From IMG/VR virus record IMGVR_UViG_3300024182_000003, positions 1 through 62,199 of that record: 62,199 bases of DNA; one strand, given 5' to 3'. The notes under the pieces are model-generated. The model was given only the letters and a program-made list of their open reading frames with translations. It had not been told where the DNA came from and searched no databases. This DNA comes from a virus (taxonomy: Duplodnaviria > Caudoviricetes). The position numbers and the translations under genes were made by a program. Within the stretch, counting starts at the first letter, position 1; every line of letters starts with the position of its first letter. Shown here one piece after another: positions 8,024 through 46,182 of the stretch.

Positions 8024-8410
8024 ATGACTAGCGGGTTTACGAAAGAAAAAATTCAACACACGGTCAGGCTTGAACTGACGTTGCCTGATATCTACAAAGA
8101 CGATGACGGTGTACCATTTGTCTTTGTAGCGTATATGCAAGTTCAGGCTCGCGCGGCAATGGATGAGATCGAAAAACAGCAAATCTTGCAAGAGTGGGAT
8201 CGTGATAGACGAAACCTTGAGATATTTGCTGTATTGACGGAAAAGCTTGAAGGATTCGAAGATTTGCTTGTGTCACCTCAGAGTGACGAAACTATGGCTG
8301 ATACGATTCGGAGGTACTTTGGGACACCGGATATGTTCGTGTTTGTGAACAGCTTTGTTCGCTTGTACGAATATGCGATGGTGCCCCCGCAGCTTTTTCG
8401 TCGTCTTTAG
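8024..8410 (+). CDS. Tail assembly chaperone
   Basis: Acidic protein between tail tube and tape measure. Confidence 0.6.
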   Translation: MTSGFTKEKIQHTVRLELTLPDIYKDDDGVPFVFVAYMQVQARAAMDEIEKQQILQEWDRDRRNLEIFAVLTEKLEGFEDLLVSPQSDETMADTIRRYFGTPDMFVFVNSFVRLYEYAMVPPQLFRRL

Positions 8411-8810
8411 AATCTTTGCGTGGCAGTTTACGTATGCTCAGGATATGGCGCGGGAGCTTGGCCCTGCGTTTTATTGTCCTTTATGTGAACGGCCAGAAAA
8501 GGACTTACCTCGTGGGTGTCCGCAATGTCAATTGACAGAAGTTCAAAACATCTTGTATGCGGTAACTGTTGAAGAGGTACTTCGTCGTAATAGGTTTCAG
8601 GAAAGGTTTCAGCGATGGGGATCAGTTTCGCTTCAACAGATCGAGCGATTGCATAGTCTAGTTTCGAAACTGATGACGAATGATGTGGTCTGGCGAGGAT
8701 CATCGCTATTACTTGCGAAGTTAGCCGACATAGTACAAGGCGAACGGACTCAAGCTGAACGGGTGAAGATATTTAACGCTGAAGCTGAGCTAAGGGCGCG
8801 AAATAAGTAA
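8355..8810 (+). CDS. Second tail-chaperone ORF (possible frameshift extension), Cys-pair containing
   Basis: Overlaps previous ORF in +1 frame, ends in TAATG coupling with tape measure; CPLC...CPQC. Confidence 0.5.
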   Translation: MFACTNMRWCPRSFFVVFRIFAWQFTYAQDMARELGPAFYCPLCERPEKDLPRGCPQCQLTEVQNILYAVTVEEVLRRNRFQERFQRWGSVSLQQIERLHSLVSKLMTNDVVWRGSSLLLAKLADIVQGERTQAERVKIFNAEAELRARNK

Positions 8811-11599
8811 TGCCGAACAAAGCCAGAATCGAGATAGAAGTTGATGCTTCGGGTAAGGTACGAGCTACCGTTAAAGACATTGACGGATTAGTAGACAAGC
8901 TCGGTCGTACTGGCGAAGCTACAGGGCATAAACTCGATACTGCTTTTGGTGTTTTTAGTGGCGAGATCATTGCAGACTTCTTTCGTGAAGGCTTACGCGA
9001 AGCTGAGCACTTTGCTAGTGAGTCAATTAAGAAGTTTAACGAGTTAAAGCTTTCGCAACTTGCGCTTAGGTCTACTGCTGGTTTTTTCGGATTCTCTCCT
9101 GATGAAGCTGAACGTTCTGTTCAGAGCTTAAACGGATTTAGATTAGGGTTGTTAAACGCTAAAGAAGGTGCTCGTGCGTTACAGCTACTGATGAGTTCTT
9201 CGTTTAAGTTTTCACTACAAGATTCAGTTCAAATTGTTAACGGCCTAACCGATGCAGCGTCTCTTAATCGGAATATGATCTATTCCGTTGGGCAAGCTGT
9301 AGAGTACGCCGCTCAGGGTATCAAGAATAAGAATCTTCGTCAGGTTGAAGAAGCTGGTATAACGACAAGTGTCAATCGAATACTTGAGCAACAAGGGATT
9401 AAGGAAGCAGACCTTAACGATAAGACGAAAGCTAGCGCAGTATCGCAAGCTCTTAAAGTTGGACTGTTGAAAGAGACTGCGCAGTTCTATGGCGATGCTG
9501 AGAAGAAAGCCGCTACTTTTCAAGGTCGTATGCTTCAGATCGATACGATCTACTTGAAGCTTCAACAAACGTTTGGCAAAGCGATTGAAGAAAATCCCGA
9601 AGTCTTAAAAGGTATTACCGACATTGGTGATAAGTTAGCGAAAGCACTAGTTGAAGCTTCAACGCCAGGAACTAAGCTTAATCAAACGTTAACTGATTTT
9701 ATTTCTTTAGGCGGTGAGGCTGTACAAGTAGGTGCGAAGCTAATTGAGTTTACTACTAAGTGGGCCGGAGAAATTGCAGCACTTATTAAGGTCGCTGCTG
9801 GAATAGGCGTGGTCTTTGCACTAAGTAAGGGAACGGCTGCTGCTGGCTTTGTTGGAGGGTTGTTAGGTAAGTCTCCGTTTGGGCTCAATCGCGCAGTAAG
9901 AGAAGTCGAAGGTGAGTTTGGCGGAGGTGTTGCTGTAGGGACGAGAAGCGGTGAAACCGTAGTAGCTGGTCAACGGATAAGCAAAGAAAGAGAAGCGGGT
10001 GATGTACTTGAAAAGTTCAATATTGCTGCGAAAAAGTCAACTGGAAGCTTGCAGGAAATGGAGAAGAAAGCTTCGTCTATGTGGAAGGATTTCGCAAGTG
10101 GTGGTATTGGAAAGGTCGGTAACACTGCGCTTATTGTTGGGCCACTTGTAGCCGCTTTGACAGAATGGATTACTGGCGCAATAAGAGAAGCGAAAGAAAA
10201 AGCTCTAGGTGATATTTCTCGAACTGCGAACTTAGGTCTAGGCGAAAAAGACCTAACCGAACGAAGAAAAGAACTAGAGCAATTACGAACGCTTCAACCT
10301 TCTGAGGCGAATGGATCACAAGCCGATATTAACTTACGTATTGCACAAACTGAAAAACTTCTCGATCTTCAAAGGCAACTTGCAGACTTCAAGAAAATTG
10401 GCGATAGCTTAACAGCGCTTCGTCAAGGTGGTGCGACTTATGCCGAGGTAACGAAGAAGCTGCAAGAGACTACCAGATTTCAATCACTGGAAGCTCTTCA
10501 AGACGAGATCAGAAAGACCGAGCTTGCGCTTAAAGCGGGTGGAGGTGGATCGTCAGATGCAATCACGAAGATGTTCCAGGAAATTCGTATTCCTGGGGAA
10601 GAAACTTCGAAGCTTGTAAACGAGCAAATGCATCGCATACATACTGCGATCAGCGCTTCAAGTAAAGAGTTCGTTGATATGCTTGCGTCACTCCAAAGTG
10701 ACACCGGCAACCCTTACGTTGCGATCTTTCGTAAGGCAAGTAAGGCTCAAGAAGAGTTCGAAAAGAAATTTGGTAGACTACCCGAAAGTATTCAATCAGT
10801 ATTTGAGAAGGTTCGTACTCAAGAACTTGGCGTTGAGATATTCAAGCAAGACCTAACTCAGATCAAGGGTGCGGCAGAGCTTCAACTTGAGCAACAACGC
10901 TTGAGTGTTAATCGTGGGTTTGAACAGACTCGCGAGCAAAGAGACATCGACCTATTCGAGAAGCTGACAGCGTTCGATAAGCAAAAGAAGAATCTTTTTG
11001 CGCAATCAACTATTCCAACTGCAAGCGATCTTGCGAGACTTGCAGATCAGTTTACTGGCGATAGTCTGTCAAAAGCTATCTTGTCGGCAACTGCTGGTTT
11101 GTCACCTGAAGAGATTCGAGGTGAAGGACTTCAGTATAAGATTGCTTATGCGCTTGACAGGGAAAAAGATAGAACTCAACGTGAAGCTGATATAACAAAT
11201 CGCAAGGATCAGTTACAGAGGGATTCTCTGACTGATAGTTTACGTAAACTTGATGAACGTGCAGCTTCTGAAGGTGAATTATCGATATTCAAACAGACGG
11301 CATTGACACAGGCAAAGCTTGATGAGTTCAAACGTCTGACTGATGATCAACTTTCACCTGAACAACGTGAGCTTAAGATGCGGTTAATCAGTGACAAGCT
11401 TGCTCAAGACTCTGCATTAAGGCAGGCCGCTGAGAAACAGGAAGCAGACCGTCAAAGCGCTCAACAGGATTTCATTAACAAGTTGAACACGTTTACAAAT
11501 TCACTACCGTATGAGCTTCGTATACAGGTTCTTGATGATACTGTAAACGGTGTAGAGTCAACGAAGATTTTAGGACACTCTAAAGCAACAAGCGAATAG
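8810..11599 (+). CDS. Tape measure protein
   Basis: 929 aa helical Ala/Gly/Leu-rich protein with hydrophobic stretches; N-terminal I.I..D.SG motif; position. Confidence 0.85.
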   Translation: MPNKARIEIEVDASGKVRATVKDIDGLVDKLGRTGEATGHKLDTAFGVFSGEIIADFFREGLREAEHFASESIKKFNELKLSQLALRSTAGFFGFSPDEAERSVQSLNGFRLGLLNAKEGARALQLLMSSSFKFSLQDSVQIVNGLTDAASLNRNMIYSVGQAVEYAAQGIKNKNLRQVEEAGITTSVNRILEQQGIKEADLNDKTKASAVSQALKVGLLKETAQFYGDAEKKAATFQGRMLQIDTIYLKLQQTFGKAIEENPEVLKGITDIGDKLAKALVEASTPGTKLNQTLTDFISLGGEAVQVGAKLIEFTTKWAGEIAALIKVAAGIGVVFALSKGTAAAGFVGGLLGKSPFGLNRAVREVEGEFGGGVAVGTRSGETVVAGQRISKEREAGDVLEKFNIAAKKSTGSLQEMEKKASSMWKDFASGGIGKVGNTALIVGPLVAALTEWITGAIREAKEKALGDISRTANLGLGEKDLTERRKELEQLRTLQPSEANGSQADINLRIAQTEKLLDLQRQLADFKKIGDSLTALRQGGATYAEVTKKLQETTRFQSLEALQDEIRKTELALKAGGGGSSDAITKMFQEIRIPGEETSKLVNEQMHRIHTAISASSKEFVDMLASLQSDTGNPYVAIFRKASKAQEEFEKKFGRLPESIQSVFEKVRTQELGVEIFKQDLTQIKGAAELQLEQQRLSVNRGFEQTREQRDIDLFEKLTAFDKQKKNLFAQSTIPTASDLARLADQFTGDSLSKAILSATAGLSPEEIRGEGLQYKIAYALDREKDRTQREADITNRKDQLQRDSLTDSLRKLDERAASEGELSIFKQTALTQAKLDEFKRLTDDQLSPEQRELKMRLISDKLAQDSALRQAAEKQEADRQSAQQDFINKLNTFTNSLPYELRIQVLDDTVNGVESTKILGHSKATSE

Positions 11600-11761: not shown

Positions 11762-12196
11762 ATGGCAAAGCCTTATGCGCAAGGGTCAATCGCTGGAGTT
11801 GACCTGAAGAAAGACGGTGTAAACTGCCAATGCTTTATCGTAGACGGTGGAGCATTTAAGCTTGGACTTCGTGGATCGATGGCGTTGGCTGCTGACGGTT
11901 CACCGAAGGTTCAAATACTCGTGACAGGGCAAAAAGGAATTGTGTTTGGAGTTCATCTGACGTACTTCCCTGTCAGCGTATTTGATGCTGTACTTACTGC
12001 AATTGTGAATGCGATCGGTGGAGGGTCTACATTTGTTGTAGCATTACAAGATGAACTACATACGATCAATCATAATTGTACGTGGGACTTTAGTGCTGCA
12101 CCAAACGGCCCAACTTATCCAGAGCAAAGAACTTCGGCAGAGTCGATTAAAGATGTGACGTTGAGACTAGTTACAACGGGTGCTGTGTCACCTTAG
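11762..12196 (+). CDS. Putative distal tail protein
   Basis: Follows tape measure; .A.DG...V motif; beta-rich. Confidence 0.45.
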   Translation: MAKPYAQGSIAGVDLKKDGVNCQCFIVDGGAFKLGLRGSMALAADGSPKVQILVTGQKGIVFGVHLTYFPVSVFDAVLTAIVNAIGGGSTFVVALQDELHTINHNCTWDFSAAPNGPTYPEQRTSAESIKDVTLRLVTTGAVSP

Positions 12197-12205
12197 AGTG
12201 ACGTT

Positions 12206-13440: not shown

Positions 13441-13591
13441 TCTAGGATAGCTCATAAGATAGCGATTCCCGGCGTCCAGGCTTGATTTCCGGGCCTTTTA
13501 GACCTGACCCGATAGGTAGGGTAGGGGTCGAGGGAAAGTGGCTTAAATCAGTGGTTACGGAAGAAATTGCTAATGTAACTTCAGAGTGACA
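13441..13591 (+). repeat. ~150-bp conserved intergenic element, copy A
   Basis: Ungapped match to 52621-52771 (+) and 26315-26465 (-): TTCCCGGCGTCCA, GATTTCC, AAAGTGGCTTAAATC, TTACGGA, terminal dyad. Confidence 0.9.
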
Positions 13592-16012: not shown

Positions 16013-16029
16013 TGTCACTCTGAAGTGAT

Positions 16030-17648: not shown

Positions 17649-17822
17649 ATGGCTAAAGTCTTACAACCGATCGCGGGAGTGAAGGGACAGATTTTTATCA
17701 ATCCGCCTCATAAGTATGTATTTGCTTATGAAACGGCGACTGGTACTCCGGGTGTTCCGCCAGGGGTATCCACGTGGCCTGATGGTGGTCAAAGAATACC
17801 GCATCCTTCAGCGGTAGTGTAA
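17649..17822 (+). CDS. Small hypothetical protein (57 aa, not in ORF track)
   Basis: ATG immediately after previous stop with GAGGT RBS; its stop lies inside an 18-bp dyad. Confidence 0.5.
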   Translation: MAKVLQPIAGVKGQIFINPPHKYVFAYETATGTPGVPPGVSTWPDGGQRIPHPSAVV

Positions 17823-17829
17823 CTCTGAG

Positions 17830-18927
17830 GTGACGTTGCCTGTTTTAGCAAATCAGGATATCGTGTGGCCACATCCACTCTTTGTTAGTAGTGTGCCTGT
17901 TGACGGAACTGCACTTGTCGATCTAGGTGATCCGGTATCTGCTTTGTGGAGTGCTAGGCGTGAGTCTTGGTATCCAATAGATACGGATCAGTTTAGATTC
18001 AATGGGGTACTTGATAATAGCTGGTCACTCACGTCATCTATCTATACTGCACTTTGTGATGTCGGGCTCTTTCCTGAGTTAACTTATGTCGTTTACTTAC
18101 AAGCTGAGACAACCGGAGGGTACAAGGCAATTACTAAGATTACTTTCGGTACTCGTTTAGGTCTTGAAGGTGATTTTAATGAGATAGATGTTCAGGCTCA
18201 ATCGGTTAAAGAAGGGCCGAGTGGACTGTTAGACCTTACGAGATATATAGGCAGAGAGTCATCGCAACTGTTAGACCTTACGAGGTATATAGGTAGAGCA
18301 ACACTACAAACGTTAGACCTTGGACGTTATGTAGGAGGTGAAGCTAGAGGCGTAATTGATTTCTACTTAAGTCAAGTCGGAAGTGCTGGTAGCGATGAGC
18401 TTCAGTTTACTATTACCGTTGTGCCTGATGGAACGTTTGTTGCACTCGATATGCACTTCAATTCGGGTGGAAGCGAAATAGTTAGAATGCAAGTCCTATC
18501 GCCTCCGATTTGGGCACTAGATAGTGAACAGATTCCGGTACTACTAATAGCTCGAATAACACCAGCGGTTGATGTTGGCAAGTTGAGACTATCTCACGCG
18601 AAGGATTTTTACGTTGAAGCCTTTAATACTACTGGCGTTGGTGATCCGGTCGAAGAAACAGTTTTTAGTGCAAAGACAGTTAAGGTCGAGATACTTGGTC
18701 GAGGATTCCTAGTAACTGCAAAACAAGTAGCTAGTCAAGGCGGATTTGTTAATGCGATTGTATCATTAGATACTCTCGTGTCGTTAGTTGAAGAAGTAAT
18801 AAACGCTTGTGGACTTGGGCCGGAAATTCGTGAGATAGCTACCGTATCGGTTGATATTGTACACGGTGATGACATTCAGATATTTGTTGATCTAGTTTCG
18901 AGTGATTGGGAGGAAGTTGGATTGTGA
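17830..18927 (+). CDS. Tail-module protein, paralog of the next gene, with three 14-aa repeats
   Basis: LLDLTRYIG-type repeat x3; shares N- and C-terminal blocks with 18924-19763. Confidence 0.6.
   Translation: MTLPVLANQDIVWPHPLFVSSVPVDGTALVDLGDPVSALWSARRESWYPIDTDQFRFNGVLDNSWSLTSSIYTALCDVGLFPELTYVVYLQAETTGGYKAITKITFGTRLGLEGDFNEIDVQAQSVKEGPSGLLDLTRYIGRESSQLLDLTRYIGRATLQTLDLGRYVGGEARGVIDFYLSQVGSAGSDELQFTITVVPDGTFVALDMHFNSGGSEIVRMQVLSPPIWALDSEQIPVLLIARITPAVDVGKLRLSHAKDFYVEAFNTTGVGDPVEETVFSAKTVKVEILGRGFLVTAKQVASQGGFVNAIVSLDTLVSLVEEVINACGLGPEIREIATVSVDIVHGDDIQIFVDLVSSDWEEVGL
18226..18351 (+). repeat. Intragenic 42-bp tandem repeat x3 (degenerate)
   Basis: GTTAGACCTT core in units starting 18226, 18268, 18310. 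Confidence 0.8.
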
Positions 18928-19763: not shown

Positions 19764-19782
19764 CGTAACTCCGAAGTGACGT

Positions 19783-23006: not shown

Positions 23007-23335
23007 TGAATCGCTTCCTTGACAAAGTTGGGAGGGAGATCGGTTATGTTCCGATTGATTGTGTATCAGGTACTAACTTGAACTTTGCCACATTTCAAGT
23101 TGTACCTGATGCGAACTTGTCACTTCAAGGTGATACTGACTCGGATGTCGAGTTACAAGTAAAAATGCCAGGAGGTGTGTTCGAGTCTTTACCTATTGAT
23201 CTTTCTACGTTTCCTCACAATGTCCCGTTATTAGTTGAAGTTAGAGCAGTTCCGTCAAATCTATTTACAGGTCGTAAGCGCCTGATGATGTTTCTTGGAG
23301 TAACCAGGAAAACGGAGGCGGGATGGAGGACGTGA
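23006..23335 (+). CDS. Hypothetical protein
   Basis: TAATG coupling; 109 aa. Confidence 0.55.
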   Translation: MNRFLDKVGREIGYVPIDCVSGTNLNFATFQVVPDANLSLQGDTDSDVELQVKMPGGVFESLPIDLSTFPHNVPLLVEVRAVPSNLFTGRKRLMMFLGVTRKTEAGWRT

Positions 23336-31254: not shown

Positions 31255-31553
31255 TGCTCTACCTCGTCATCGAATGTGATCGAGTGTCTATGATCAAAGA
31301 TATGAGCGACTAAGTTATACTTGTCGTCTGCTATCCACCGAGCAATAGTTTCCAGGTCTTGTTCAACGTTACCCGACAAGACCTTTACGGATAGGCACTT
31401 CATATCCTCTGGTAAACAATCGCTCGAATTGAGTGCGAACTTGACTCGCTCTGCTACTGAGTCTTCGCCTTTTCCTGAAAGGTCTAGTAATATTTGCATC
31501 TTTCTTACCTCCTGGTCGTCCTGTTGGTCGTGGTTGAAAATGAATGACTTCAC
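31251..31553 (-). CDS. Hypothetical protein
   Basis: ATGA coupling at 3' end; likely start at internal Met with AGGAGG RBS. Confidence 0.45.
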   Translation of the reverse strand: MKSFIFNHDQQDDQEVRKMQILLDLSGKGEDSVAERVKFALNSSDCLPEDMKCLSVKVLSGNVEQDLETIARWIADDKYNLVAHIFDHRHSITFDDEVEQ

Positions 31554-31683
31554 CGAGTGCTATATCTACTCGATGATACTTTCCTTTGTCTGCGTTTAGA
31601 TCAGTGAGTCTGCCTTGTCGGATATACTTACGAACAGTTTCCACTGACACCTTTAGAAGCTTGGCTGTTTCTGGTAGGTTCAT
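31369..31683 (-). CDS. Excisionase/MerR-like helix-turn-helix DNA-binding protein
   Basis: E.AKLL.VS.ETVR.YIR.GRL; RPTGRP tail. Confidence 0.7.
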   Translation of the reverse strand: MNLPETAKLLKVSVETVRKYIRQGRLTDLNADKGKYHRVDIALGEVIHFQPRPTGRPGGKKDANITRPFRKRRRLSSRASQVRTQFERLFTRGYEVPIRKGLVG

Positions 31684-32705: not shown

Positions 32706-32874
32706 CTTTTGTCCCTAACACTTTGCTAGTAACGCGCCCACAATGATCATTAGAAAAGACCAAGCAATGAAACCCAGGTGTCTGAGTTTTCGGATTTGTC
32801 CTCGTTCTATTTCGCCTAGATTAACTCCACCGTCTCTATCGTACATTGTTGCCTCCGTAACTCTGGAGTGACAC

Positions 32875-35238: not shown

Positions 35239-35241
35239 CTG

Positions 35242-35766
35242 TCACCTCGGAGTGACGCCTCGTTGCGCTGAGGCATCCATTGCTTTTCGAATACGGCCCT
35301 TGTAGAGTCCGTATTGGTTGTCAATAGTAGAGCAGGAAAACCGACAAGCTGGATAGCGTATACATCCATAGAACTCGTGTTTGTCTTTACTCTTTCGTAG
35401 AACTAAAGGCCAACCACATTGAGGGCAATCGGCTACAAGAAAGTCTCGCCAACGATCAAGTCTATCTTGAAGATTCTGTTTCCATCCTTTGACTCGATGA
35501 ACCCGTTTTGCTCCACCGAGCATCATTATTTGATCTTCTGCAACCTTACACCAAAGAGTAACTCGTATAGCATCCTTGCCAACTGATCGAGAATGACCCG
35601 AGCTTGTAATGCCAGTGTAGACTCGAAGTGACAAAGGATACCTGGAACCTTTGATTCGTCTTGAAAACACAATCTCTCTTGTTCTTGGAACTACGATAAC
35701 CTGGAAGCCTTGACTCTCCAGGAACTCTCGCATTTCAGAAAGAGAAATGTCGTAATACTCAGCCAT
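35242..35766 (-). CDS. Protein with topoisomerase-type C4 zinc ribbon
   Basis: CPQCG..LV.R......FYGC.RYP.C. Confidence 0.7.
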   Translation of the reverse strand: MAEYYDISLSEMREFLESQGFQVIVVPRTREIVFSRRIKGSRYPLSLRVYTGITSSGHSRSVGKDAIRVTLWCKVAEDQIMMLGGAKRVHRVKGWKQNLQDRLDRWRDFLVADCPQCGWPLVLRKSKDKHEFYGCIRYPACRFSCSTIDNQYGLYKGRIRKAMDASAQRGVTPR

Positions 35767-36460: not shown

Positions 36461-38489
36461 TGGTTGAAACTCCTTTGATCAGGAAAAATAGATTCATCTT
36501 TGTACGTGTTAAGGCAACGTACCTAAGATTGTATTCCTGTTCTGTTTGCCACGGTTGTTGGTTTGCCCAAATGAACGGGAGCTTATCAGGTTCGAGTATC
36601 CAAATAGTCTCGGCCTCTAGTCCCTTTGCCTTATGAACAGTCGAGAGAACGATTCCACCATTCTCATCGCTGAACAAGTTATCGATTTCTCGAATCAGTT
36701 CTTCAGGTGAACGGGTTTGAAATGTCTTGTAGCAGACATCGATGGATTCGATCCTATCTTGCAAGGCTTCGATTGCGCCTTCACTCCACTTGCGTTGTGC
36801 AAGCTTTTCTCTTTGTTGCTTGAAGTAGATATCAAGGAACTGTAAGAATTCCTTTGTGAACACCTCATCCTTGTATCTAGGGTAATCAGGAGCGCCGTAG
36901 CGCTGCTTTGCAAGCTCCATTACTTGATTGACAATGGTCGTCAGAAGCTTCCCTATATTCCGTCCCTTGACACTTGCTGGTCGTCTATTCCTGATTAGCT
37001 CAAGGCATAAGGAAATAAGTGGAGCGGTTACACGACAGATAATCAAGTCACCGCTCTTGACCCTGGTTAGTATCGAAGACAGTGGAACGTTTTCAATGAC
37101 TCCTTTTGGGGCTCCCTTACGTGCTCTGATTTCAGGGACAATTGCCTGAGCCAATTCAATCGGCCCTGTAGGACACCTGAAGGATACCGACAAAGGAAGC
37201 TCACCGGCCTTCAATCGTCGCTTGATGTTGTAGTAACTGTTCGAGTCAGCACCGGAAAATCCGTATATTGCTTGATTTGGATCACCCACGACAGTCATCC
37301 TGCAACCCTTTGCTCTAATCTTTAAGAGCAGTTCGAGTTGAAGACGGTTTAAGTCTTGTACCTCATCAACCAGAATGTCTTTGTAGCGTGATACAGGTTC
37401 AAGCTTCCACTTCACGGGAAGATAGATCATATCAGTATAGGTGATCGTACCTTCGTTACGTGCTAACTGTTCACCTTCATCAAGAGCGCGAGTCACGATG
37501 CTTAACATCAAGTTGAGATCATCCTCGAATTTTCCTGTTAGTGAAGGAATGTCTAGACCGAAATGATCAATTAACATTGCAACACTTTCAAGGTCATCAG
37601 GATCGGTGAGCGTAACTTGAATATATTCGAGCAAATCATCAGCCGCATTTCTGACTTCGAATTCTGTTGGAATACCGATCTTGTTCAAGCTACTGGTTCG
37701 GATGTTTGAAACGATTCGCTTGATGTCTGGAAACATTATGTTGCTATATTTCCAGTTTTGCAGATCGAGTCGTCCGATTTCTTGTCTGAGAATTTCGTTT
37801 CCTATGGAATGAATGGTTCGACACTCCATTAGACCTTGTAGTCTAGTTCGAAGCTCAGCAGCGATGTCGCGACCGAATGCACAAAACAAAGCTGAAACCT
37901 GTCGGCCTTTAGGTGTGAAATACTTGATTACCTGAGCTAGTCGTTCTAGGACTGTTGTCTTACCGCATCCTGCAACGCCTTTGATAATCAAGTTTCCTTG
38001 ACCACCAATATACCACTTGAAAACGTCTACTTGTTCAGGCGAGGGAATGAAGGGTTTAAGCTGTCCTCGATATCCTACTTCACGCCACTTAGACATTAAC
38101 GGCTTCAATTTTGTATCAGCAGCGCGAGGATCAGAAACCAGTTCGATTAGTGAATTCACTCTTCGAAGAGGATCATCTTTATCGATAGGTTCAGTTGAGG
38201 TTCCGAGTTGCCAGATAGTGTCTTCAGTTTCTTCCGTTGTCACTTCGGAGTGACGCAGAGGACGTTCGCAAAACATCTCATCTGAAGCTTCGTCAATCAG
38301 TCCCTGGGGAGGTTCTGACTTCTTTCTTTTCTTGATCACGTCTTGAGTTGATTCGTATAGATTGCCTGCCGAGTCCACAAACTTCAAACAATCAGGGCAT
38401 CGTTGAGCGACCTTGATTTTTGAAAGATTTAGACTTGGATGCGGACAAGCGGTAGGTTTCTTTTTCGTTGTTGTCTTTTTGGCTTTCAT
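36444..38489 (-). CDS. UvrD/Rep-family SF1 helicase
   Basis: GVAGCGKTT, LVDEVQD, VGDPNQAIYGF.GA, SFRCP, STVHKAKGLE, YVALTR. Confidence 0.92.
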   Translation of the reverse strand: MKAKKTTTKKKPTACPHPSLNLSKIKVAQRCPDCLKFVDSAGNLYESTQDVIKKRKKSEPPQGLIDEASDEMFCERPLRHSEVTTEETEDTIWQLGTSTEPIDKDDPLRRVNSLIELVSDPRAADTKLKPLMSKWREVGYRGQLKPFIPSPEQVDVFKWYIGGQGNLIIKGVAGCGKTTVLERLAQVIKYFTPKGRQVSALFCAFGRDIAAELRTRLQGLMECRTIHSIGNEILRQEIGRLDLQNWKYSNIMFPDIKRIVSNIRTSSLNKIGIPTEFEVRNAADDLLEYIQVTLTDPDDLESVAMLIDHFGLDIPSLTGKFEDDLNLMLSIVTRALDEGEQLARNEGTITYTDMIYLPVKWKLEPVSRYKDILVDEVQDLNRLQLELLLKIRAKGCRMTVVGDPNQAIYGFSGADSNSYYNIKRRLKAGELPLSVSFRCPTGPIELAQAIVPEIRARKGAPKGVIENVPLSSILTRVKSGDLIICRVTAPLISLCLELIRNRRPASVKGRNIGKLLTTIVNQVMELAKQRYGAPDYPRYKDEVFTKEFLQFLDIYFKQQREKLAQRKWSEGAIEALQDRIESIDVCYKTFQTRSPEELIREIDNLFSDENGGIVLSTVHKAKGLEAETIWILEPDKLPFIWANQQPWQTEQEYNLRYVALTRTKMNLFFLIKGVSTNEALY

Positions 38490-38715: not shown

Positions 38716-39383
38716 TTGGTTCTCAACGGGTGCCTAAACGCTCCCCGTATTTGCTGAAGAAAGCTGACGTTGCAATGATCGCGATGATCATCAAAGAACC
38801 TGTTATCCAAAGCATTACGAAACCTCCACGTCACTCTGAAGTGACGCACACAGGGACTTGAGAACCCTGTCGTCGCATTAACCGAAGCGCTGCTTGCTAT
38901 CACTTTGCCTCGGCCTCTCTGCGATTTTTACCAGTCGCATTAAGATCGCAAGCCCCACCAGTTCGCCCGAACTTCCCTTTAAGCCTCTTTGCGTAGCACC
39001 CGACATTGGTTCTCATTTCATTAACGATGTCTGCGGCGGGAAGGTAACTACTCTGACGATCAGTTCCTCGGAAAATCTAGATCAAAGACTTAACGAACTT
39101 TCGAACAATTAAGTTAATGTCAATTTGAGAAAGTGTAAGTGCGTTGACTAACTCTCGGAATCGCTGAACGCCAGCAACCCTGGCCTTTCTTGCTTATGAG
39201 ATTGATAATTAAGCTCTTGCAGAGTGGCTGTGACTGAAGCTTCAAGAAGGATTCAAGACTAACTAGCGCTCAGCGTCATCTGGCCTTTTGCTAGCCTTGT
39301 TGGGCTATCTTACGCTAGCCTTCTCTTGGCTTGTCCTTTGCCTATCCTATGTTCAAAGATCAGAAATCCTAACTACTAGGTAA

Positions 39384-39444: not shown

Positions 39445-39803
39445 TTAGGATAGAGATGGAATTTTAATTACTTTTCTTCTTTGTCTCTTATTATGTGCTT
39501 GTTCCAAAGCGGTTGCCCAACGTAAATTTCCCGGTTCATAATTTCCGTTATTATCAGGATAACGATCTAAACTATAGAGCGAAGATGGACGTGGCCCAAG
39601 ATTGTAATGATCCAATCATAAAAAGCAAGAAAGTTATCTTTCCACTCATCGTATACTTTAATACCGCGTCTACCGTAGTTTTTATAACCTTTATCATTTG
39701 GATTATAACATCGATACATCATACCCTTCCAGGCTCGGTACTCAGGTGTCTGTGATAAACGTGGAATCTTAAGTAAATAGTCGAGATTGTGCATTTGTAT
39801 CAC
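39445..39803 (-). pseudogene. Frameshifted HNH homing endonuclease
   Basis: N-half EY.AW..M..RCYN...Y..YG.RGI.V..EW; C-half LGPRPS..SLDR..DNNGNYEPGNLRWAT..EQ..N continues in another frame from about 39600. Confidence 0.8.
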
Positions 39804-40150
39804 TCTGAAGTGACATTGAACCGTTTTCGGAAAAGATACTCAGGTCGCTGAGGGACTAACGTTGTTTGTGTAACAATTTGAATTTCAGGGAGCCGTTGCT
39901 TATCGTTCCAACGAATAACTAGCTTTACGTTACCAGTCGGAGGTGATGGAAATTCTCTAATAGCCTGATACTCTTTTGCCGAGCACCAACTATTCGATTT
40001 GACCTGGACATAATAGATAAAGTCGAGACCGCTACAAATAAGGTCAAATTCTCCAAAGGAACCACCGGCGCGAGTAACACGATATCCTTCGAATATAAAC
40101 CAATCTCGTGTTTTGTACTCACGCCGATTTCCTTTTTGCTTTCGATTCAA
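39800..40150 (-). CDS. Holliday junction resolvase, Hjc-like
   Basis: KG...E......GY.V.R..GS.G.FDLI.......VQVK. Confidence 0.75.
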   Translation of the reverse strand: MNRKQKGNRREYKTRDWFIFEGYRVTRAGGSFGEFDLICSGLDFIYYVQVKSNSWCSAKEYQAIREFPSPPTGNVKLVIRWNDKQRLPEIQIVTQTTLVPQRPEYLFRKRFNVTSE

Positions 40151-40638: not shown

Positions 40639-41987
40639 TTCTTTCCTTTCTTGGTTGCGACTTTTTTAGTCGATAACTTCTTAGTTCCAGTCACTTTCTT
40701 TGTCGTTTTCTTAGTGGCTGGTCTTGATTGCTCAGCTTTCCAGTCCGCGTGCTGCTTTGCCAGAAATTCCAAGACTCGTCCAAGTTCATCGTCTGGTATT
40801 TCGGTAACTCTTGTGATACCTACTTCGTCAAGTGGGTTCTCTTCGCGAGATACTAAGTAGGTGGCAATGGTAGTGAAAGCGTCATCCCAGGATTCAAAGA
40901 ATCCACTCTGTTTCATTGCTACGAGTTGATCCTTTACGCTTTCCTGCATAGCAGCTATTTGTTTCGTACTGAGCTTGGTTTGTGTTTGCTCTGGCTTGGG
41001 TTCTTTCGCAGCTTTCTTTGTAACCTTCCTCGTTGAAGATCGTTCTTCGTCTTGTTCTTCCGTGTCTTCACCTGTTTCTTCGTTTTCTTCATTTGGTTCG
41101 AGTCCAGAACCGATCTCAAGTTCCTCAAGGTCTTCCAGGTCTGTCGTAAAGAACTCTGAAGCGTTACAAGCAATAACAGTCGCTCCAACAAAGGAACGTT
41201 TTTGAGCAACACCTTGAATGGTATTGATCACGTCAAAGATATTCGGATTGGTGATTCTATAAACAGTGCTATCAAGCTCGTAAGCTGCATACTTCTTTTT
41301 CTTTCGAGTTTCTTTCTTGATAGCTACTGCTCGACCATCAGCGATAGCTTCTTCCCACATCTTCCAGTAGGTTTCTGGTTTACCGTACTTGCCTTCAGTC
41401 TCAGCTTTCTCGACTGCAAACCTAAACTCGACAATCTTTGAAGCACGTTTTGGAAGATCACCAATTTTGTAACCCAGGAACTTTGCTTCCGTTTCGTCAA
41501 CCCAACGAAAGCGATATCGTGATTCCCAGGAATTGTTTGAACGATCCAGGGATACGATCAAAGTCATTTCTAGATTTCCGTTAGGTGCCAAAATTTGCTT
41601 GAACACATCAGTTCGATAGCTGAAGTAGAACAGTGGTTCTCCGCCGTGATCTTTACCTGTCCAATCCATTATCTCAGCAATAGGATAAATCTTAGGCTTA
41701 AAACCAAAGAACGTAAGAAGCTTTTCTGCTCCAGGCTTGAGAAGGGTTTTCTTTTCGACATCGCCAATAGTACCGAAGTCCTTGCCTTCGACCATCTGGC
41801 CTTTAATAAACTCAAGCATTTGATTGTATCGATCCATTGCTTGAGCAATTGTAAGGGCTGGTGCAAAGTCCGGCCCAATAGACATCGGTTGAGATGACAC
41901 GACCTGAAGAGCTTGCTTAGGCTCGACAAACTGTGCATCTACGGCAGGGGATTCTTTAGCTTTCTTCATTTTGTTCTCCGTTGTCAC
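40635..41987 (-). CDS. Putative recombination (single-strand annealing-like) protein with acidic and Lys-rich tail
   Basis: G.DFG.I...K.TLLKPGAEKL and NTI...AQKR.FV.A blocks; functional call is tentative. Confidence 0.45.
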   Translation of the reverse strand: MTTENKMKKAKESPAVDAQFVEPKQALQVVSSQPMSIGPDFAPALTIAQAMDRYNQMLEFIKGQMVEGKDFGTIGDVEKKTLLKPGAEKLLTFFGFKPKIYPIAEIMDWTGKDHGGEPLFYFSYRTDVFKQILAPNGNLEMTLIVSLDRSNNSWESRYRFRWVDETEAKFLGYKIGDLPKRASKIVEFRFAVEKAETEGKYGKPETYWKMWEEAIADGRAVAIKKETRKKKKYAAYELDSTVYRITNPNIFDVINTIQGVAQKRSFVGATVIACNASEFFTTDLEDLEELEIGSGLEPNEENEETGEDTEEQDEERSSTRKVTKKAAKEPKPEQTQTKLSTKQIAAMQESVKDQLVAMKQSGFFESWDDAFTTIATYLVSREENPLDEVGITRVTEIPDDELGRVLEFLAKQHADWKAEQSRPATKKTTKKVTGTKKLSTKKVATKKGKK

Positions 41988-42382
41988 TCCGGGGTGACAC
42001 TGACTTGTGGATTCGCAAACTGTTCACAGGCCCAATGTCCGCAATGTGGACAAACGGGAATGTCTTCAACTTCACAATTAAAATAACCAAGCAGTAGGCC
42101 GTGTTGACTGGCTGCACGTTCTTCAAGAACTATTAAAATATCACGAAGAAGTAGAAGTGCTCTTCGGTTAGTGCCGTGTGGTTTTTGATTATCGACATAT
42201 TTAATTCTATCGATAAGTACGCGAATAACTTCTTGTGTAGTTGTACCGTGGTAATGACCAACATTGCCTGGAAAGTTATCACCTTCACGTTTAACAAACC
42301 GTAAAGTATGTAGAGGCCATTCGTGGTCTTCCTTATCAAGTTCGGCAAGAATATACTCGTGACCTGGATCGAGAATTTTCAT
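41984..42382 (-). CDS. Possible Acb2/Tad1-like hairpin protein
   Basis: PGH.Y.L...L.F......GTT.QEVI.VLIDR.......P...N..A...L......LE.R pattern recalled from that family. Confidence 0.4.
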   Translation of the reverse strand: MKILDPGHEYILAELDKEDHEWPLHTLRFVKREGDNFPGNVGHYHGTTTQEVIRVLIDRIKYVDNQKPHGTNRRALLLLRDILIVLEERAASQHGLLLGYFNCEVEDIPVCPHCGHWACEQFANPQVSVTPE

Positions 42383-42705: not shown

Positions 42706-44194
42706 CCTTTCTCGGCGTCTTACTACTTATCGGTCGCCACAAATTGTCGAAGTGCATTATAGGTGCAGAGTAGACTACTCGATCTACTCCTGTAACTCCA
42801 TCTCGATTCTTGGCTGTAATCAGTTCGGCGATACCTTTGTTAAGATCGGTCTGATTATAAACTTCGTCTCTATAAACAAAGGTTACAACGTCACTATCCT
42901 GTTCGACAGCACCCGTATTTCTAAGGTCTGAAAGAATAGGCCGATGTCCTCCCTGTCCATCCTTACGTCTTTCACATTCTCGATTGAGTTGTACTAGCAC
43001 TATTATAGGTAGATCGAACTCGATTGAGATTTGAACTAGACCGTTTGACTTTTCCGTAGTCTCAGCAGTAAGTCCGTCACTTCGGAGTGACGCCATTAGA
43101 TCGAGATAATCTATGATCAGTAGATCAAGTTTACCGTGCTTGAGAATGAACTGTCGTACACTACTACGAATATCTAACCAAGTTTCTCCACCTGTATCAT
43201 CGATATGGATCGGCAAGTTCTCGAAAGTATCCAGGGCATCCGCTACCCGTTCCCACTCTTCTTTGTCTAAATCAGCGTGTCGTAATCTTGTGGCATTGAC
43301 TCTTGCTATAGCGGCAATATATCGTTCAACAGTTCGCTTAGCTTTCATCTCGTAAGACTTATGAAAGACAATGTAGTTCTTTTTCGCTGCATATAGACCA
43401 ACGCCAACAGCAAGAGAAGTTTTTCCCATCGAAGGTCTGCCAGCAATAGTATAGTAGCCCTGTCGTAACCCACCTAACCGTGCATCAAAATCGTTGAGTC
43501 CTGTGGGTAGGCCAATAAGAGCACCAGGATTTTCAGCACGTATTCTAAGCTCTTCTGCGAATTCATCGGCACCTTCTTTAGCTGAATAAATCCTTCCACC
43601 GCTATTGAAGGGTAATAGAGAAAGAAGTTCTGTTTGAGCGAAGGTGAGAACTTTGCCAAGGTCTTCTTCTTCGAAGCAGAGTTCAATGATTTTATTTGCG
43701 AAGGTAATGAACTGACGAAGCTGCGACTTGTCCTTGATAAGTCGTGCATAGTATTCAATAGTATCTGTTCGCGGGACTCCATCGATAAGAGAAGAGAGAT
43801 ACGATCCACCACCAATTTGCTCTAATTCTCCGAAGCGTCTTAGCTCGCCTCCAAGTGTAATCATATCGATTGGAAGTTGTTGTTCGTGTACGCTAATCAT
43901 TCTTTCAAAAATACGTCTATGTGATTCGAGAAAGAAGTCTTGCCGTCTTAAGAGTTCTATTGCTTGATCTATGATATGTCCTGATTTACCGAAGCTGTCT
44001 AGTAAGATTGCGCCCAAGACAGAACGTTCTGATTCGAGATCACTTGGTAATCCTTTTTCGAAGAATGGATCATTACCTGTAGCTCGGTTGCCTTTATAGG
44101 TAACGACCTTGCGGGTGATACTAGATGGTGGTTTGCCTTTTTTGACAACGACTCGTTTACTCTTAGTCGAAGGCTGATTTTTTTTGTTTTTCAT
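42689..44194 (-). CDS. dnaB: Replicative DNA helicase
   Basis: P...E.E.SVLGAIL, GRPSMGKT, IIDYL.LM, QLNR, P.LSDLR.TG.VEQD.D, KNR.G. Confidence 0.95.
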   Translation of the reverse strand: MKNKKNQPSTKSKRVVVKKGKPPSSITRKVVTYKGNRATGNDPFFEKGLPSDLESERSVLGAILLDSFGKSGHIIDQAIELLRRQDFFLESHRRIFERMISVHEQQLPIDMITLGGELRRFGELEQIGGGSYLSSLIDGVPRTDTIEYYARLIKDKSQLRQFITFANKIIELCFEEEDLGKVLTFAQTELLSLLPFNSGGRIYSAKEGADEFAEELRIRAENPGALIGLPTGLNDFDARLGGLRQGYYTIAGRPSMGKTSLAVGVGLYAAKKNYIVFHKSYEMKAKRTVERYIAAIARVNATRLRHADLDKEEWERVADALDTFENLPIHIDDTGGETWLDIRSSVRQFILKHGKLDLLIIDYLDLMASLRSDGLTAETTEKSNGLVQISIEFDLPIIVLVQLNRECERRKDGQGGHRPILSDLRNTGAVEQDSDVVTFVYRDEVYNQTDLNKGIAELITAKNRDGVTGVDRVVYSAPIMHFDNLWRPISSKTPRKDDDDE

Positions 44195-44435: not shown

Positions 44436-44817
44436 GAGTCCTTCCTCGTTGAATAGCTGCTTCGATTATTTCTTTTATATCCGCATAGAATGGCCCGTCA
44501 TTTCTTCGTAATCCACTTTTGTCTTTACCACCTTCAAGTTTTACTACATTCTCACCACAATTACGGCATCTAATAAGTAGCTTTACAATACGGTATCTAT
44601 TAGTTAGCTCAGCAGCGATACTGTCAACATCTATAGGATAGTCATAAGGTCTATTAGGATAGAGTGTATCCTTTCCCTCTGCAAAGCCTTCAAGTATAAG
44701 ATAGCGTATTGGACGACGATCAAGTTCAGACTCCTTTTGTTTATTAGCGAGATTTTCTGCAAGCTGTGCTTGCTTTCGCTCTGTTTCAGTCTGCGAGTTT
44801 CTCGCCATCAACGTCAC
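44353..44817 (-). CDS. Hypothetical protein
   Basis: 154-aa ORF in replication operon. Confidence 0.5.
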   Translation of the reverse strand: MTLMARNSQTETERKQAQLAENLANKQKESELDRRPIRYLILEGFAEGKDTLYPNRPYDYPIDVDSIAAELTNRYRIVKLLIRCRNCGENVVKLEGGKDKSGLRRNDGPFYADIKEIIEAAIQRGRTLEANKNKSGDRGTATVGKKSKAKKRKA

Positions 44818-45007
44818 TCCGAGGTGACACAGGATTCAATCTACTAAACGTACTTTGAAAACAAGCTTCAGCGGAATCGAACTGAGCGTGACAGTCTTTG
44901 CACTGGTAAAGCGTATTCAGTTCTCCACCGCAATTGATACACCTAGCAGTACCGTAGTCCAATGGTACTGATATTTGATCCGAACTGTACTTGATATTAT
45001 CAGTCAT
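44786..45007 (-). CDS. Small Zn-ribbon protein
   Basis: CINC...CKDC; GAGGT RBS. Confidence 0.5.
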   Translation of the reverse strand: MTDNIKYSSDQISVPLDYGTARCINCGGELNTLYQCKDCHAQFDSAEACFQSTFSRLNPVSPRSDVDGEKLAD

Positions 45008-45204
45008 CTATCTACCTCGTTGAGTAATACTAACGTTCACATAATCCTGTATTGCTTTACGTTCGTTAGCACCTAAATGAGTTTCTTTTGCGATTACGTT
45101 TCCAGTTAACGTCATTACTATGACTTCTCGAACTGTTACTTGATCAAGAAGTAATAATTCACAGGAAACGTTTGGGTCTTCAGGAATAACGATGACTTTA
45201 TATT

Positions 45205-46182
45205 TCATAGGTCTCCTTTTTTCGGAGGTTGTCCATTGAGATGTTGCTTGCAAAACGACACGTAGGAACCCCAATGTTTCAGAATTGTTTCCGGTGATGG
45301 TGGATCAAACGGCCTGCCCGAGCTTGTCTTAGATGTCCACCAAACTCCAAATCCGATAATCAACTTGTTGATATCTTCATCGGACTTGCTCGTATATAAG
45401 CTTCGTATTCGACTTTCTGTGCGTCCAATTCTTGATCCTGTGCCTGAAGGTGCGATTTCAAGATAGATCGCTGATGCCTCAACGATAGCATCAAAAACTA
45501 GATTTCGCTCCCTTTTCTTCTTCGGAGATTTCGCGGCCTCTTTATTAACTATGCTAGATTGTTGAGATGAAGTTTCATTATCTTTTACTACTTTATAGTC
45601 GAATAACTCATCATCCTGGTGTGGCACGATAGTTGCTCTTATATTATTATTACTAGTAGAAGATTTGTTATCTTCGGTATTTGTAATGTTAGAGTCTTGT
45701 ATAAATGCCCTATATCTCTCGGTGCAAAATATCGATTTAAGAAAAGTCTCTTTTTCATTTTCATCGAGGTCTTCGAAAACCTCAATTGCTGAATTTACGT
45801 CCATTTCTCGCTCTGTCACTTTGAAGTGACGGGCCTCTTCAATTAAAAGATCGGCTATAGTATCAAGGTGAAGCTTTAGATTTCGATGTTGACTTTTTTT
45901 TGCTGAATCTACTTGTAGTAATTGGCTTGTAATAAATCTGCGATTCATTGCTTTAATGGTTGGCTTCCGTAAACCGCTATCCTCTGCTAGTTTCGTTAAG
46001 GTGTAGCTAAACCACCCTCGAATATTCGTTGCTTTACTTTGTTTGAGTAGTAGGGTCATTATAACAGCGGCGTCAGCACTACCCCCCAAGATTCGAATCA
46101 ACGCCGGAGAAACGGAAATGTTTTCTTCAGCGTAAGTGTATAGGACTGCCTTATGTTTATCCGAAAGCTCGTTCCAGGACAT
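45205..46182 (-). CDS. Putative replication initiator
   Basis: N-terminal wHTH-like GWF......L.EDSGL, low-complexity AT-rich linker, C-terminal P.P.TI.KHW; upstream of dnaB. Confidence 0.6.
   Translation of the reverse strand: MSWNELSDKHKAVLYTYAEENISVSPALIRILGGSADAAVIMTLLLKQSKATNIRGWFSYTLTKLAEDSGLRKPTIKAMNRRFITSQLLQVDSAKKSQHRNLKLHLDTIADLLIEEARHFKVTEREMDVNSAIEVFEDLDENEKETFLKSIFCTERYRAFIQDSNITNTEDNKSSTSNNNIRATIVPHQDDELFDYKVVKDNETSSQQSSIVNKEAAKSPKKKRERNLVFDAIVEASAIYLEIAPSGTGSRIGRTESRIRSLYTSKSDEDINKLIIGFGVWWTSKTSSGRPFDPPSPETILKHWGSYVSFCKQHLNGQPPKKGDL

Follow-up and report, generated by a model that had tools for sequence, protein, structure and literature searches.

Dyad-symmetric repeats dispersed over phage genomes were described no later than 2015, in the form of the 17-bp repeat of the Cluster O mycobacteriophages (PMC4351075). 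In Corndog, it occurs in 34 copies, of which 14 are intergenic, 10 lie near the 5' ends of genes, and 10 are intragenic. In the sections of that report on which we draw, the phages are described as not obviously temperate, a dimeric DNA-binding protein with a role other than transcription initiation is predicted, and the function of the repeat is left unexplained (PMC4351075). Here, we consider another dyad, GTCAC-N6-GTGAC, that recurs throughout virus record IMGVR_UViG_3300024182_000003 (Caudoviricetes), the whole of which, 62,199 bp in length, is the window analyzed. In this genome, the copies are spaced with ruler-like regularity, and some of them are written into the coding sequence of genes.

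Several other families of short repeats provide points of reference. The parS, NBS, and OB sites of ParB, Noc, and KorB are palindromes of 13-16 bp, bound by helix-turn-helix (HTH) dimers that act over kilobases by spreading or sliding. The KorB and Noc sites are dispersed, some of them within genes, and parS sites cluster near origins. Iterons of the lambda O type are dyad-symmetric sites located in the coding region of the initiator gene. The DNA uptake sequences of Haemophilus and Neisseria are over-represented, reported to be evenly distributed, and found at gene ends or in tolerant reading frames. Stoperators are repressor sites that act away from promoters and are present in dozens. The start-associated sequences of the Cluster K mycobacteriophages are asymmetric motifs that include ribosome-binding purines and lie just upstream of start codons, and at starts only; they are not known to have intragenic or evenly spaced copies. 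The sections of the Cluster O report used here name these start-associated sequences as repeats and describe the stoperators of Cluster A (L5) as numerous, situated in the short spaces between genes, and overlapping both stops and starts (PMC4351075).

Form and spacing of the dyads

The exact sequence GTCAC-N6-GTGAC was found 17 times in the whole genome, against an expectation of 0.05, and 47 times, against 1.59, when one mismatch was allowed, numbers that rule out chance. Scored against the 16-nt degenerate core GTCACYYYRRRGTGAC, sites with 0, 1, 2, and 3 mismatches number 16, 29, 2, and 7, where 0.0, 0.05, 0.65, and 5.15 are expected. Because this spectrum drops so abruptly after one mismatch, the family is sharply bounded, with 45 members, or 47 if two weak ones are counted, and no decayed copies. 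All of the statistics below refer to the 45 sites with at most one mismatch, those with two (at 2968 and 54775) being left out. Along the direction of transcription, the consensus reads r-Y-GTCAC-YYY-RRR-GTGAC-R-y; the arms carry at most one mismatch, and the YYYRRR center has no fixed sequence. The symmetry reaches 18 bp, with a pyrimidine at position 0 in 44 of the 45 copies and a purine at position 17 in all of them, and the element has no orientation with respect to transcription. Half-sites outside the dyads are not markedly avoided (35 and 42 found, against ~56).

Flanking sequences show no relationship between copies (on average, 6.6 of 24 bases are identical), and the repeated unit is therefore only ~18-20 bp. 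An exception is provided by the copies in 8248-8287 and 10663-10702, which share 17 of the 24 bases on the left (S.D. over all pairs, 2.2). The corresponding peptides, EGFEDLLVSPQSD in the ORF (open reading frame) labeled tail chaperone and KEFVDMLASLQSD in that labeled tape measure, are similar and could reflect a small duplication or a shared motif.

The record is a complete genome (estimated completeness, 100%) with a terminal repeat of 125 bp, and spacing was computed on a circle of 62,074 bp with 20,000 random-placement simulations. The 45 gaps have a mean of 1379 bp and a coefficient of variation (CV) of 0.47, compared with 0.97 for random placement, and not one of the 20,000 simulations gave a value as low. 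Both tails of the distribution are depleted. Only three gaps are shorter than 500 bp where 13.4 are expected (P = 2e-5), and none is longer than 3000 bp where 5.1 are expected (P = 1.2e-4); the largest, at 2998 bp, compares with a mean largest gap of 6061 bp in random placement (P = 1e-4). A sensitivity run that added the sites at 2968 and 54775 left the outcome unchanged (CV 0.473, largest gap 2998 bp). Promoter-like hexamer pairs, counted in the region from 44 to 62 kb, are not enriched (35, against 31.9 in shuffles). The original prediction, made from the sequence, had held that site density matters in itself, beyond promoter control, and these figures bear it out.

The same prediction had placed several intragenic copies where a long gene would otherwise leave a large site-free gap, and this, too, is upheld. 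Taken alone, the 37 copies at gene junctions have a CV of 0.585, compared with 0.92 for 37 random picks among the 107 gene starts (P = 5.5e-4). The five largest gaps between them, of 5239, 3589, 3231, 2830, and 2725 bp, each hold at least one of the eight intragenic copies, and the sixth, of 2439 bp, holds none. When eight sites were placed at random 20,000 times, the probability that all five gaps were hit was 0.0023, and that of a sum of squared gaps as small as with the eight actual copies was 0.00015. Ruler-like spacing, together with the filling of gaps by coding copies, argues that it is coverage of the DNA that is under selection, not control of particular genes.

Dyads in genes and at gene junctions

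The seven intragenic copies named in the original prediction were all recovered at the positions given there, to within 1 nt (Table 1). An eighth lies at 1908-1923, in a gene whose extent was set by codon-usage scoring. The seven had been described as full dyads, which is correct for the five that are perfect GTCAC-N6-GTGAC; those at 23119 and 23501 end in GTGAT and have one mismatch. Two further copies, at 28356 and 38830, are intragenic in the list of longest ORFs and become junction copies on codon-usage scoring, and there are coding copies near gene ends at 24856, 44813, 47705, and 49894.

Inside genes, the reading frame that begins with the first base of the dyad holds a TGA, such that only two frames are usable, and exactly those two are used. 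One gives the peptides ASLQSD, VSPQSD, ASLQSD, LSLQGD, and ASLRSD (pattern x-S-[LP]-[QR]-[SG]-D), and the other gives RHFEVI, RHSEVT, and RHFKVT (pattern R-H-[FS]-[EK]-V-[TI]). In the predicted proteome (107 ORFs, 19,515 residues), there are 13 hexapeptides that a dyad could spell, and all 13 are dyad-encoded; when residues were shuffled within proteins, 0.075 were expected, and none of 2000 shuffles gave more than 2. The 13 hexapeptides thus owe their existence to the DNA signal, and the claim that the site constrains protein sequence is confirmed. The phage is a clear example from nature of amino acids being dictated by a DNA signal, in one instance within the ATPase domain of the replicative helicase.

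What did not stand in full was the description of the host genes as conserved, which holds for two of the eight copies, those in DnaB and the receiver domain, and overstates the case for the other six. The gene names fared similarly. Those of DnaB, the UvrD helicase, and the receiver domain are backed by Pfam; the sole match of the "initiator" (45205-46182) is a weak one, to a DnaD-like PHROG (E 2.5e-5); and the labels tail chaperone and tape measure come from gene order and size only, neither protein having a Pfam match. The sole match of the tape-measure-sized ORF, 8810-11599, is to an unnamed PHROG. No family could be assigned to the remaining genes that carry intragenic dyads.

The cost to the proteins looks small, in that local sequence is dictated at positions where this is cheap. 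In the DnaB loop, all 119 aligned homologues have [AST]GRGRxES, and the phage loop is one residue shorter; there is no insertion at the dyad, and the site therefore arose by substitution. The peptide in the receiver domain is largely native to the family (QRHFEVILLDL in the phage, EKHFNVVLLDL in Aquifex NtrC1), and only small changes were thus needed for a dyad to form there. The UvrD copy lies upstream of the helicase domain, which starts at approximately residue 202, and for UvrD residues 1-200, as for tape-measure residues 400-929, searches returned self-matches only and no homologue. A rare-codon signal was not found in the dyad codons (mean relative synonymous codon usage of 1.08, against 1.13 for the genome). 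Also, an in-frame ATG occurs within 10 nt of the intragenic copies at 45815 and 8272 only, which is not above chance for internal translation starts.

Away from gene interiors, many of the dyads lie at starts and stops. A start codon that opens at least 40 codons lies at -2 to +17 nt from the dyad end in 21 of the 37 non-intragenic copies, and in 11 of the 37, the upstream stop lies within the dyad itself, as TGA at positions 13-15 (seven copies), TAA at positions 2-4 (three), or TAG at positions 8-10 (one). Part of the GTAAC arm variants can be attributed to the TAA stop at positions 2-4. GGAG or GAGG is present at positions 9-12 in 5 of the 10 copies located 0-4 nt from a start, compared with none of the eight intragenic copies (hypergeometric P ~0.03), which suggests that the central bases are loose enough to be co-opted as a ribosome-binding site. 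Many genes have a Shine-Dalgarno sequence of their own downstream of the dyad, and the copies at 1118, 26206, 26500, 48870, 48981, and 56692 lie away from starts.

Meaning of the array

On balance, we consider it somewhat probable that the dyads are a genome-tiling array on duplex DNA, read by a putative dimeric protein and selected for coverage, with the coding copies as gap-fillers. A symmetric dimer would read the dyad on double-stranded DNA, and the ~45 copies would have been selected to cover all 62 kb of the genome, lying 1.4 kb apart on average and never more than 3 kb. Placement would follow cost. For the most part, the sites would take up a few intergenic bases, overlapping the upstream stop, with the purine-rich right half doubling as Shine-Dalgarno sequence; where long genes or junctions that overlap provide no such space, the site would be put into coding sequence, in the stop-free frames. 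Each bound site would then serve ~1.5 kb on either side. One route to this would be a nucleating or loading protein that spreads, slides, or bridges, as proteins of the ParB, KorB, and Noc types do, for which coverage would count and location relative to promoters would not. Such an array could serve to coat or protect the DNA, to compact it, or to silence it globally. Selection for coverage narrows the possible mechanisms to processes of limited reach, namely spreading, sliding, bridging, and roadblocking. A more specific proposal, which we regard as possible if rather doubtful, is that the dyads are ruler-like loading sites from which the phage's own protein spreads or slides for ~1.5 kb, such that the entire chromosome is coated by a "self" coat or chromatin that shields, compacts, or silences it. 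If so, selection for unbroken coverage would be strong enough to overwrite codons of DnaB, the tape measure, and other genes.

The protein that binds the dyad is probably encoded by the phage, and three leftward genes supply candidates (Table 1). The product of 46347-47639 has a region similar to the LmbU family. LmbU is itself an HTH homodimer that binds a palindrome and, in the text available to us, was modeled by its authors on the ParB protein Spo0J (PMC6510168). The N terminus of the phage protein is lysine-rich, and its long helical C-terminal region, rich in lysine and glutamate, contains the repeated segments ...LPADEQAKYAKMADKEG... and ...LPEGERAAYVKMLDSPK.... The ParB-like N-domain protein of 49871-50608 has PHROG matches only, with no match in Pfam or NCBIfam.

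A number of observations weigh against a coverage array and its candidate reader. The match of 46347-47639 to the NCBIfam LmbU family (E 1.4e-16, 61 bits) lies below the curated cut-off of 125 bits, and the protein has neither a Pfam match nor a PDB sequence match. Single-sequence AlphaFold models were unusable for fold searches, with a predicted local distance difference test (pLDDT) score of <50 over the relevant domain of the LmbU-like protein and a mean of 40.2 for the initiator, and the MerR-like call for 48514-48843 depends on a low-confidence Atlas model. As for the array, the 17 perfect sites, considered by themselves, show no significant regularity (CV 0.84, P = 0.36), the largest-gap test is not significant for the junction sites alone (P = 0.14), and the intragenic copies sit off-center in their gaps, that at 38239, for example, leaving 2998 and 591 bp. 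The 21 copies beside start codons leave room for a role in expression. Finally, no related phage was found in the databases searched.

The searches for relatives were as follows. No match to 12 kb was obtained by megablast among 50,697 phage records, tblastn with DnaB did not exceed 35% identity, no relatives emerged from an IMG/VR locus search based on DnaB, and the best large-terminase (TerL) matches are at most 50% identical. The exact 16-mer has 16 single matches in IMG/VR, 14 of them on contigs of 4-5 kb, which were treated as chance. The dyad was found in none of 80 TerL-related IMG/VR loci (80 kept of 575 found). Two of the contigs with related large terminases have inverted repeats of their own: in one (L025), nested GGCGA/GCGAG/CGAGG counts imply GGCGAGG-N5-CCTCGCC, six times in 21 kb, and in the other (L084), GGGTT-N9-AACCC occurs seven times in 18 kb. 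A 16-mer scan of 185,579 species genomes returned at least 120 matches. Among those listed, there were scattered single matches and no dyad-rich host genome, with the exception of three loci in two genomes of Dehalococcoidia, where the identical 16-bp core is repeated in tandem, 3-4 copies to an array and one every 108-109 bp, set within a 28-bp palindrome, CCATTGGTCAC-N6-GTGACCAATGG. These arrays, which encode the repeat peptide GHSEVTNG, lie in ORFs with weak matches to O-like replication-initiator PHROGs (E 7e-5 and 1e-4), and in the two 8-kb loci (L161 and L211), the ORF is one or two genes away from a DnaB-like gene. By analogy, they resemble origin iterons located within the gene for an initiator, the pattern seen in lambda, and proteins that read this core are predicted to exist in replication modules.

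This identity of core could be taken to mean that origin-binding or helicase-loading machinery reads the phage dyads, too, the dispersed copies being sites of loading or restart. One copy does lie inside the DnaD-like gene of the dnaB module, and two are 111 bp apart in the divergent control region. Against this, tblastn, BLASTP, and phmmer found no phage protein similar to the Dehalococcoidia initiators, the flanking bases there are G and C, compared with Y and R in the phage, and 45 single sites do not look like an origin, which needs its iterons in a cluster and an unwinding element; we consider a replication role quite improbable. Somewhat less so, although still unlikely, is a role as roadblocks, at which a global repressor would stop elongating RNA polymerase genome-wide, in a lysogen or at a switch of stage, with spacing mattering because every transcription unit needs to be blocked. 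In location, the phage dyads, many of which occupy short spaces between genes and overlap stops and starts, resemble the Cluster A stoperators as excerpted above (PMC4351075). One copy separates the first leftward gene from the best leftward promoter-like site, the HTH_17 protein of 31369-31701 resembles L5 gene 36, if weakly (E 0.001), and a small MerR-like repressor, Gp36 of D29, is described for a lytic phage in the part of the literature consulted (PMC12266134). However, one block per operon would suffice, which leaves the even tiling inside long operons unexplained. Stoperators are asymmetric and oriented with transcription (PMC4351075, same sections), whereas the phage dyad is symmetric to 18 bp, and stoperator-like sites picked out by consensus in the first 50 kb of L5 are not regularly spaced (CV 0.79-1.02, P 0.33-0.71). 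L5 is, moreover, annotated as temperate, with an integrase and an immunity repressor, whereas Pfam scans of 71 proteins of the window (some small ORFs lying outside the scan) revealed no integrase, partition pair, or CI-like repressor.

The closeness to starts and stops, the purine-rich right arm, and a mean minimum free energy of -5.2 kcal/mol for the sense-strand 24-nt segments would also suit an element that acts as RNA, either a hairpin that hides the Shine-Dalgarno sequence and couples translation of neighboring genes or the operator of an RNA-binding repressor. We think this very unlikely. Over the 45 aligned sites, a 7-pair stem has 86.3% paired cells, compared with 88.2% after shuffling, 499 of 500 shuffles being at least as high, and the covariation score lies below 498 of 500 shuffles, which argues against a hairpin kept by compensatory changes. 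Variable arm pairs change on one side only, with no two-sided change at all: the mid-arm C-G pair has 12 unpaired cells and one U-G, and the flanking pair is C-A in 16 cases and C-G in 5. Five of the 45 segments, mainly GTAAC variants, fold more weakly than -2 kcal/mol. The halves of the dyad therefore vary independently, as befits a symmetric dimer on two half-sites one helical turn apart on duplex DNA, not a hairpin. Furthermore, eight copies lie deep within genes, those at 1118, 26500, 48981, and 56692 are far from starts, many genes have their own Shine-Dalgarno sequence past the dyad, and a signal acting gene by gene in RNA would not predict even spacing of the DNA. There is little to recommend the dyad as the target of a DNA-modifying or -cutting enzyme, such as the PAPS-reductase-like and ParB-like pair of 49204-50608, or of a nicking enzyme. 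These two genes are adjacent and are followed by two CxxCxxCC proteins, and relatives of PAPS reductase act in DNA phosphorothioation systems, according to the text available (PMC12839542), but nothing links them to the dyad, and the ParB-like protein has only the matches noted above. We give least credence of all to selfish miniature palindromes (REP- or MITE-like) or recombination scars without function in the phage. A short palindromic repeat mostly outside genes would fit such an origin, but mobile palindromes are contradicted by the unrelated flanks, the lack of decayed copies, and a DnaB copy that is not an insertion; the coding copies are, moreover, in frame and avoid the stop-containing frame, and the spacing is regular.

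Genome setting

The genome is organized in three blocks. The first, transcribed rightward from 1 to ~25.7 kb, contains head, tail, and lysis genes, including those for the major head protein, the 929-aa tape-measure-sized ORF, and lysozyme. The leftward block, from 48.8 to 25.8 kb, encodes DnaB, the DnaD-like protein, the UvrD-like helicase, SSB, a PD-(D/E)XK protein, and MazG, and the second rightward block, from 49.2 kb, encodes PAPS-reductase-like and ParB-like proteins, RecA, ThyX, and the large terminase. The only sequencing run found to contain the phage is a soil metagenome (DNA, assembled contigs), which is probably its source; no RNA run with the phage was listed. In a search of 5.8 billion proteins, the best matches of DnaB, other than the protein itself, were 46-50% identical, and those with names were from Blastocatellia/Acidobacteriota, a weak hint from sequence as to the host.

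Several features of these blocks deserve mention in their own right. The response regulator gene, 23323-23943, sits among the late genes, with the lysozyme gene on one side and genes downstream of the tape-measure ORF on the other. Its product combines a receiver domain and a helical C-terminal part and matches PHROG 731 (unknown function); a gene for a kinase was not observed. It was rejected as a binder of the dyad, as the C-terminal part resembles long helices, not an HTH. In the leftward block, the minus-strand ORF 25824-26183 outscores the plus-strand ORFs that overlap it, and next to it lie 333 bp of non-coding DNA, 26184-26516, which contain three of the four genomic copies of ATCTAGGG, along with near-copies. 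A dyad marks each of its edges, and it could be an origin or control region. At 49066-49149, there is a 27-codon ORF with a good ribosome-binding site, whose product (MAKAKKTAKKKKKG...) is very rich in lysine; a 20-pair stem-loop, 49164-49206, follows this ORF directly before the PAPS-reductase-like gene. The module 49204-52135, comprising the PAPS-reductase-family gene, the ParB-like gene (PHROG matches only; it has GGHQRL), and the two proteins with CxxCxxCC zinc/iron-chelating domains, may be a DNA-modification system.

Table 1. Dyad copies of the window, candidate binding proteins, and the Dehalococcoidia arrays
Feature	Position	Strand	Context
Dyad, perfect	1118..1133		intergenic, 3 nt past stop of 744-1115, 2 nt before TTGACA-17-TAGAAT
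Dyad, perfect	1908..1923		deep in gene 1231-2073, ASLQSD, residues 226-231/280; absent from the original prediction
Dyad, 1 mismatch	3843..3858		intergenic, follows major head protein gene 2730-3839
Dyad, GTAAC arm	4839..4854		TAA is stop of 4297-4842; ATG at +3 nt
Dyad, GTAAC arm	6948..6963		TAA is stop of 6574-6951; ATG at +15 nt with own GGAGG
Dyad, perfect	8272..8287		deep in ORF 8003-8410, VSPQSD; tail chaperone by position only
Dyad, perfect	10687..10702		deep in 929-aa ORF 8810-11599, ASLQSD; tape measure by position and size
Dyad, perfect	12187..12202		contains TAG stop of 11762-12196; ATG at +3 nt
Dyad, 1 mismatch	13575..13590		intergenic; ATG at +14 nt
Dyad, 1 mismatch	16014..16029		stop 1 nt before; abuts ATG 16030
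Dyad, 1 mismatch	17819..17834		junction 17822/17830
Dyad, 1 mismatch	19765..19780		junction; ATG at +2 nt
Dyad, 1 mismatch	21625..21640		TGA is stop of 19783-21639; ATG at +1 nt
Dyad, 1 mismatch (GTGAT)	23119..23134		deep in 23006-23335, LSLQGD
Dyad, 1 mismatch (GTGAT)	23501..23516		within receiver domain of 23323-23943, RHFEVI
Dyad, 1 mismatch	24856..24871		first codons behind ATG 24852; gene following lysozyme gene
Dyad, perfect	26206..26221		edge of non-coding 26184-26516; 22 nt upstream of ATG 26183 (minus strand)
Dyad, 1 mismatch	26500..26515		opposite edge of 26184-26516; 1 nt past stop of 26517-26816 (minus strand)
Dyad, 1 mismatch	28356..28371		3' end of 28288-28614 (minus strand); 3 nt upstream of ATG 28352
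Dyad, 1 mismatch	29760..29775		junction; ATG at +15 nt
Dyad, perfect	30749..30764		TGA is stop of 30750-30938 (minus strand)
Dyad, 1 mismatch	32857..32872		junction; ATG at +10 nt
Dyad, perfect	35241..35256		TGA is stop of 35242-35844; ATG at +2 nt
Dyad, perfect	38239..38254		intragenic, orphan N-terminal extension of UvrD-like helicase 36444-38603 (minus strand), RHSEVT
Dyad, perfect	38830..38845		among tiny ORFs; GGAGG, ATG at +14 nt
Dyad, 1 mismatch	39799..39814		TGA is stop of 39800-40150; ATG at +4 nt
Dyad, perfect	41983..41998		TGA is stop of 41984-42382; ATG at +13 nt
Dyad, perfect	43076..43091		within DnaB 42689-44194, loop directly after DYLDLM, ASLRSD
Dyad, perfect	44813..44828		last 30 codons of 44786-45007, VSPRSD; ATG at +4 nt
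Dyad, perfect	45815..45830		intragenic in 45205-46182 (weak DnaD-like), RHFKVT; in-frame ATG at +10 nt
Dyad, 1 mismatch	46320..46335		intergenic, past stop of LmbU-like gene
Dyad, 1 mismatch	47705..47720		coding, MSLQSD, 84 nt ahead of stop of 47621-48082
Dyad, 1 mismatch	48870..48885		between leftward promoter-like site 48928-48900 and first leftward gene
Dyad, 1 mismatch	48981..48996		divergent control region; 111 bp from copy 48870
Dyad, perfect	49894..49909		TGA is stop of PAPS-reductase-like gene; also ASPQSD in ORF 49871-50608
Dyad, 1 mismatch	50616..50631		junction; ATG at +9 nt
Dyad, 1 mismatch	52137..52152		junction 52135
Dyad, 1 mismatch	52755..52770		ATG at +3 nt
Dyad, C at core position 10, both arms GTCAC/GTGAC intact	53607..53622		junction; ATG at +17 nt
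Weak copy, 2 mismatches	54775..54790		at RecA stop
Dyad, GTAAC arm	55796..55811		TAA is stop of ThyX 55008-55799
Dyad, 1 mismatch	56692..56707		intergenic; GTGACA is first hexamer of promoter-like site
Dyad, 1 mismatch	57608..57623		TGA is stop of 56738-57622; ATG at +14 nt
Dyad, perfect	58166..58181		5' end of large terminase ORF
Dyad, 1 mismatch	60078..60093		junction; ATG at +11 nt
Dyad, 1 mismatch	61792..61807		junction 61790/61803
Candidate binder	46347..47639	-	430 aa, LmbU-family-like region residues 60-292, K/E-rich helical tail
Candidate binder	48514..48843	-	first leftward gene, MerR/HTH_17-like by ESM Atlas (lead only, pLDDT 0.50)
Candidate binder	31369..31701	-	HTH_17/excisionase-like protein
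Dehalococcoidia arrays	L161:3347-3578, L141:755-1094, L211:2606-2838		more arrays on G001 contigs C19, C30

Comparison with known systems

A symmetric array that tiles the genome and extends into genes differs in one respect or another from each of the systems outlined at the outset. With the Cluster K start-associated sequences, the phage dyad shares its repetition upstream of starts, and it differs in being symmetric, partly intragenic, and evenly spaced. The DNA uptake sequences are a feature of host genomes and are asymmetric and shorter. Both the lambda O iterons and the Dehalococcoidia arrays are tandem clusters at a single locus, whereas the phage array is genome-wide; only a single copy lies in 45205-46182, and tandem arrays are confined to the Dehalococcoidia loci. 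The sites of ParB, KorB, and Noc are matched in palindrome size by the 16-bp core and 18-bp symmetry of the dyad, although its copy number per kilobase is far above theirs, and the phage has only a candidate binder.

The Cluster O repeat, as described in the sections consulted (PMC4351075), is the closest precedent, having more than 30 copies with conserved arms and a variable center, partly intragenic, in a genome of ~70 kb. The phage has the same features, with 45 copies in 62 kb, conserved arms, and eight copies deep in genes. The sequences differ, that of Cluster O having 7-bp arms and a 3-bp spacer, and tblastn against Corndog found no shared proteins other than a weak ThyX match, and thus no sign of common descent. 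When the Corndog sites were recomputed from the genome record, the published 34 were recovered. Their spacing over the whole genome is uneven (CV 1.06, P = 0.77, largest gap 9229 bp), with a higher density in the right arm, which, taken alone, is mildly regular (CV 0.67, P = 0.036). In the literature searched, we found neither a later paper on the function of the Cluster O repeat nor one that describes phage genomes with such evenly spaced sites. The novel elements are the ruler-like spacing, the use of coding copies to fill gaps, and the proof that peptides are dictated by the motif. Should the dyads turn out to be loading sites for a protein that coats the entire chromosome, the same logic might also account for the dyad repeats of the Cluster O mycobacteriophages.

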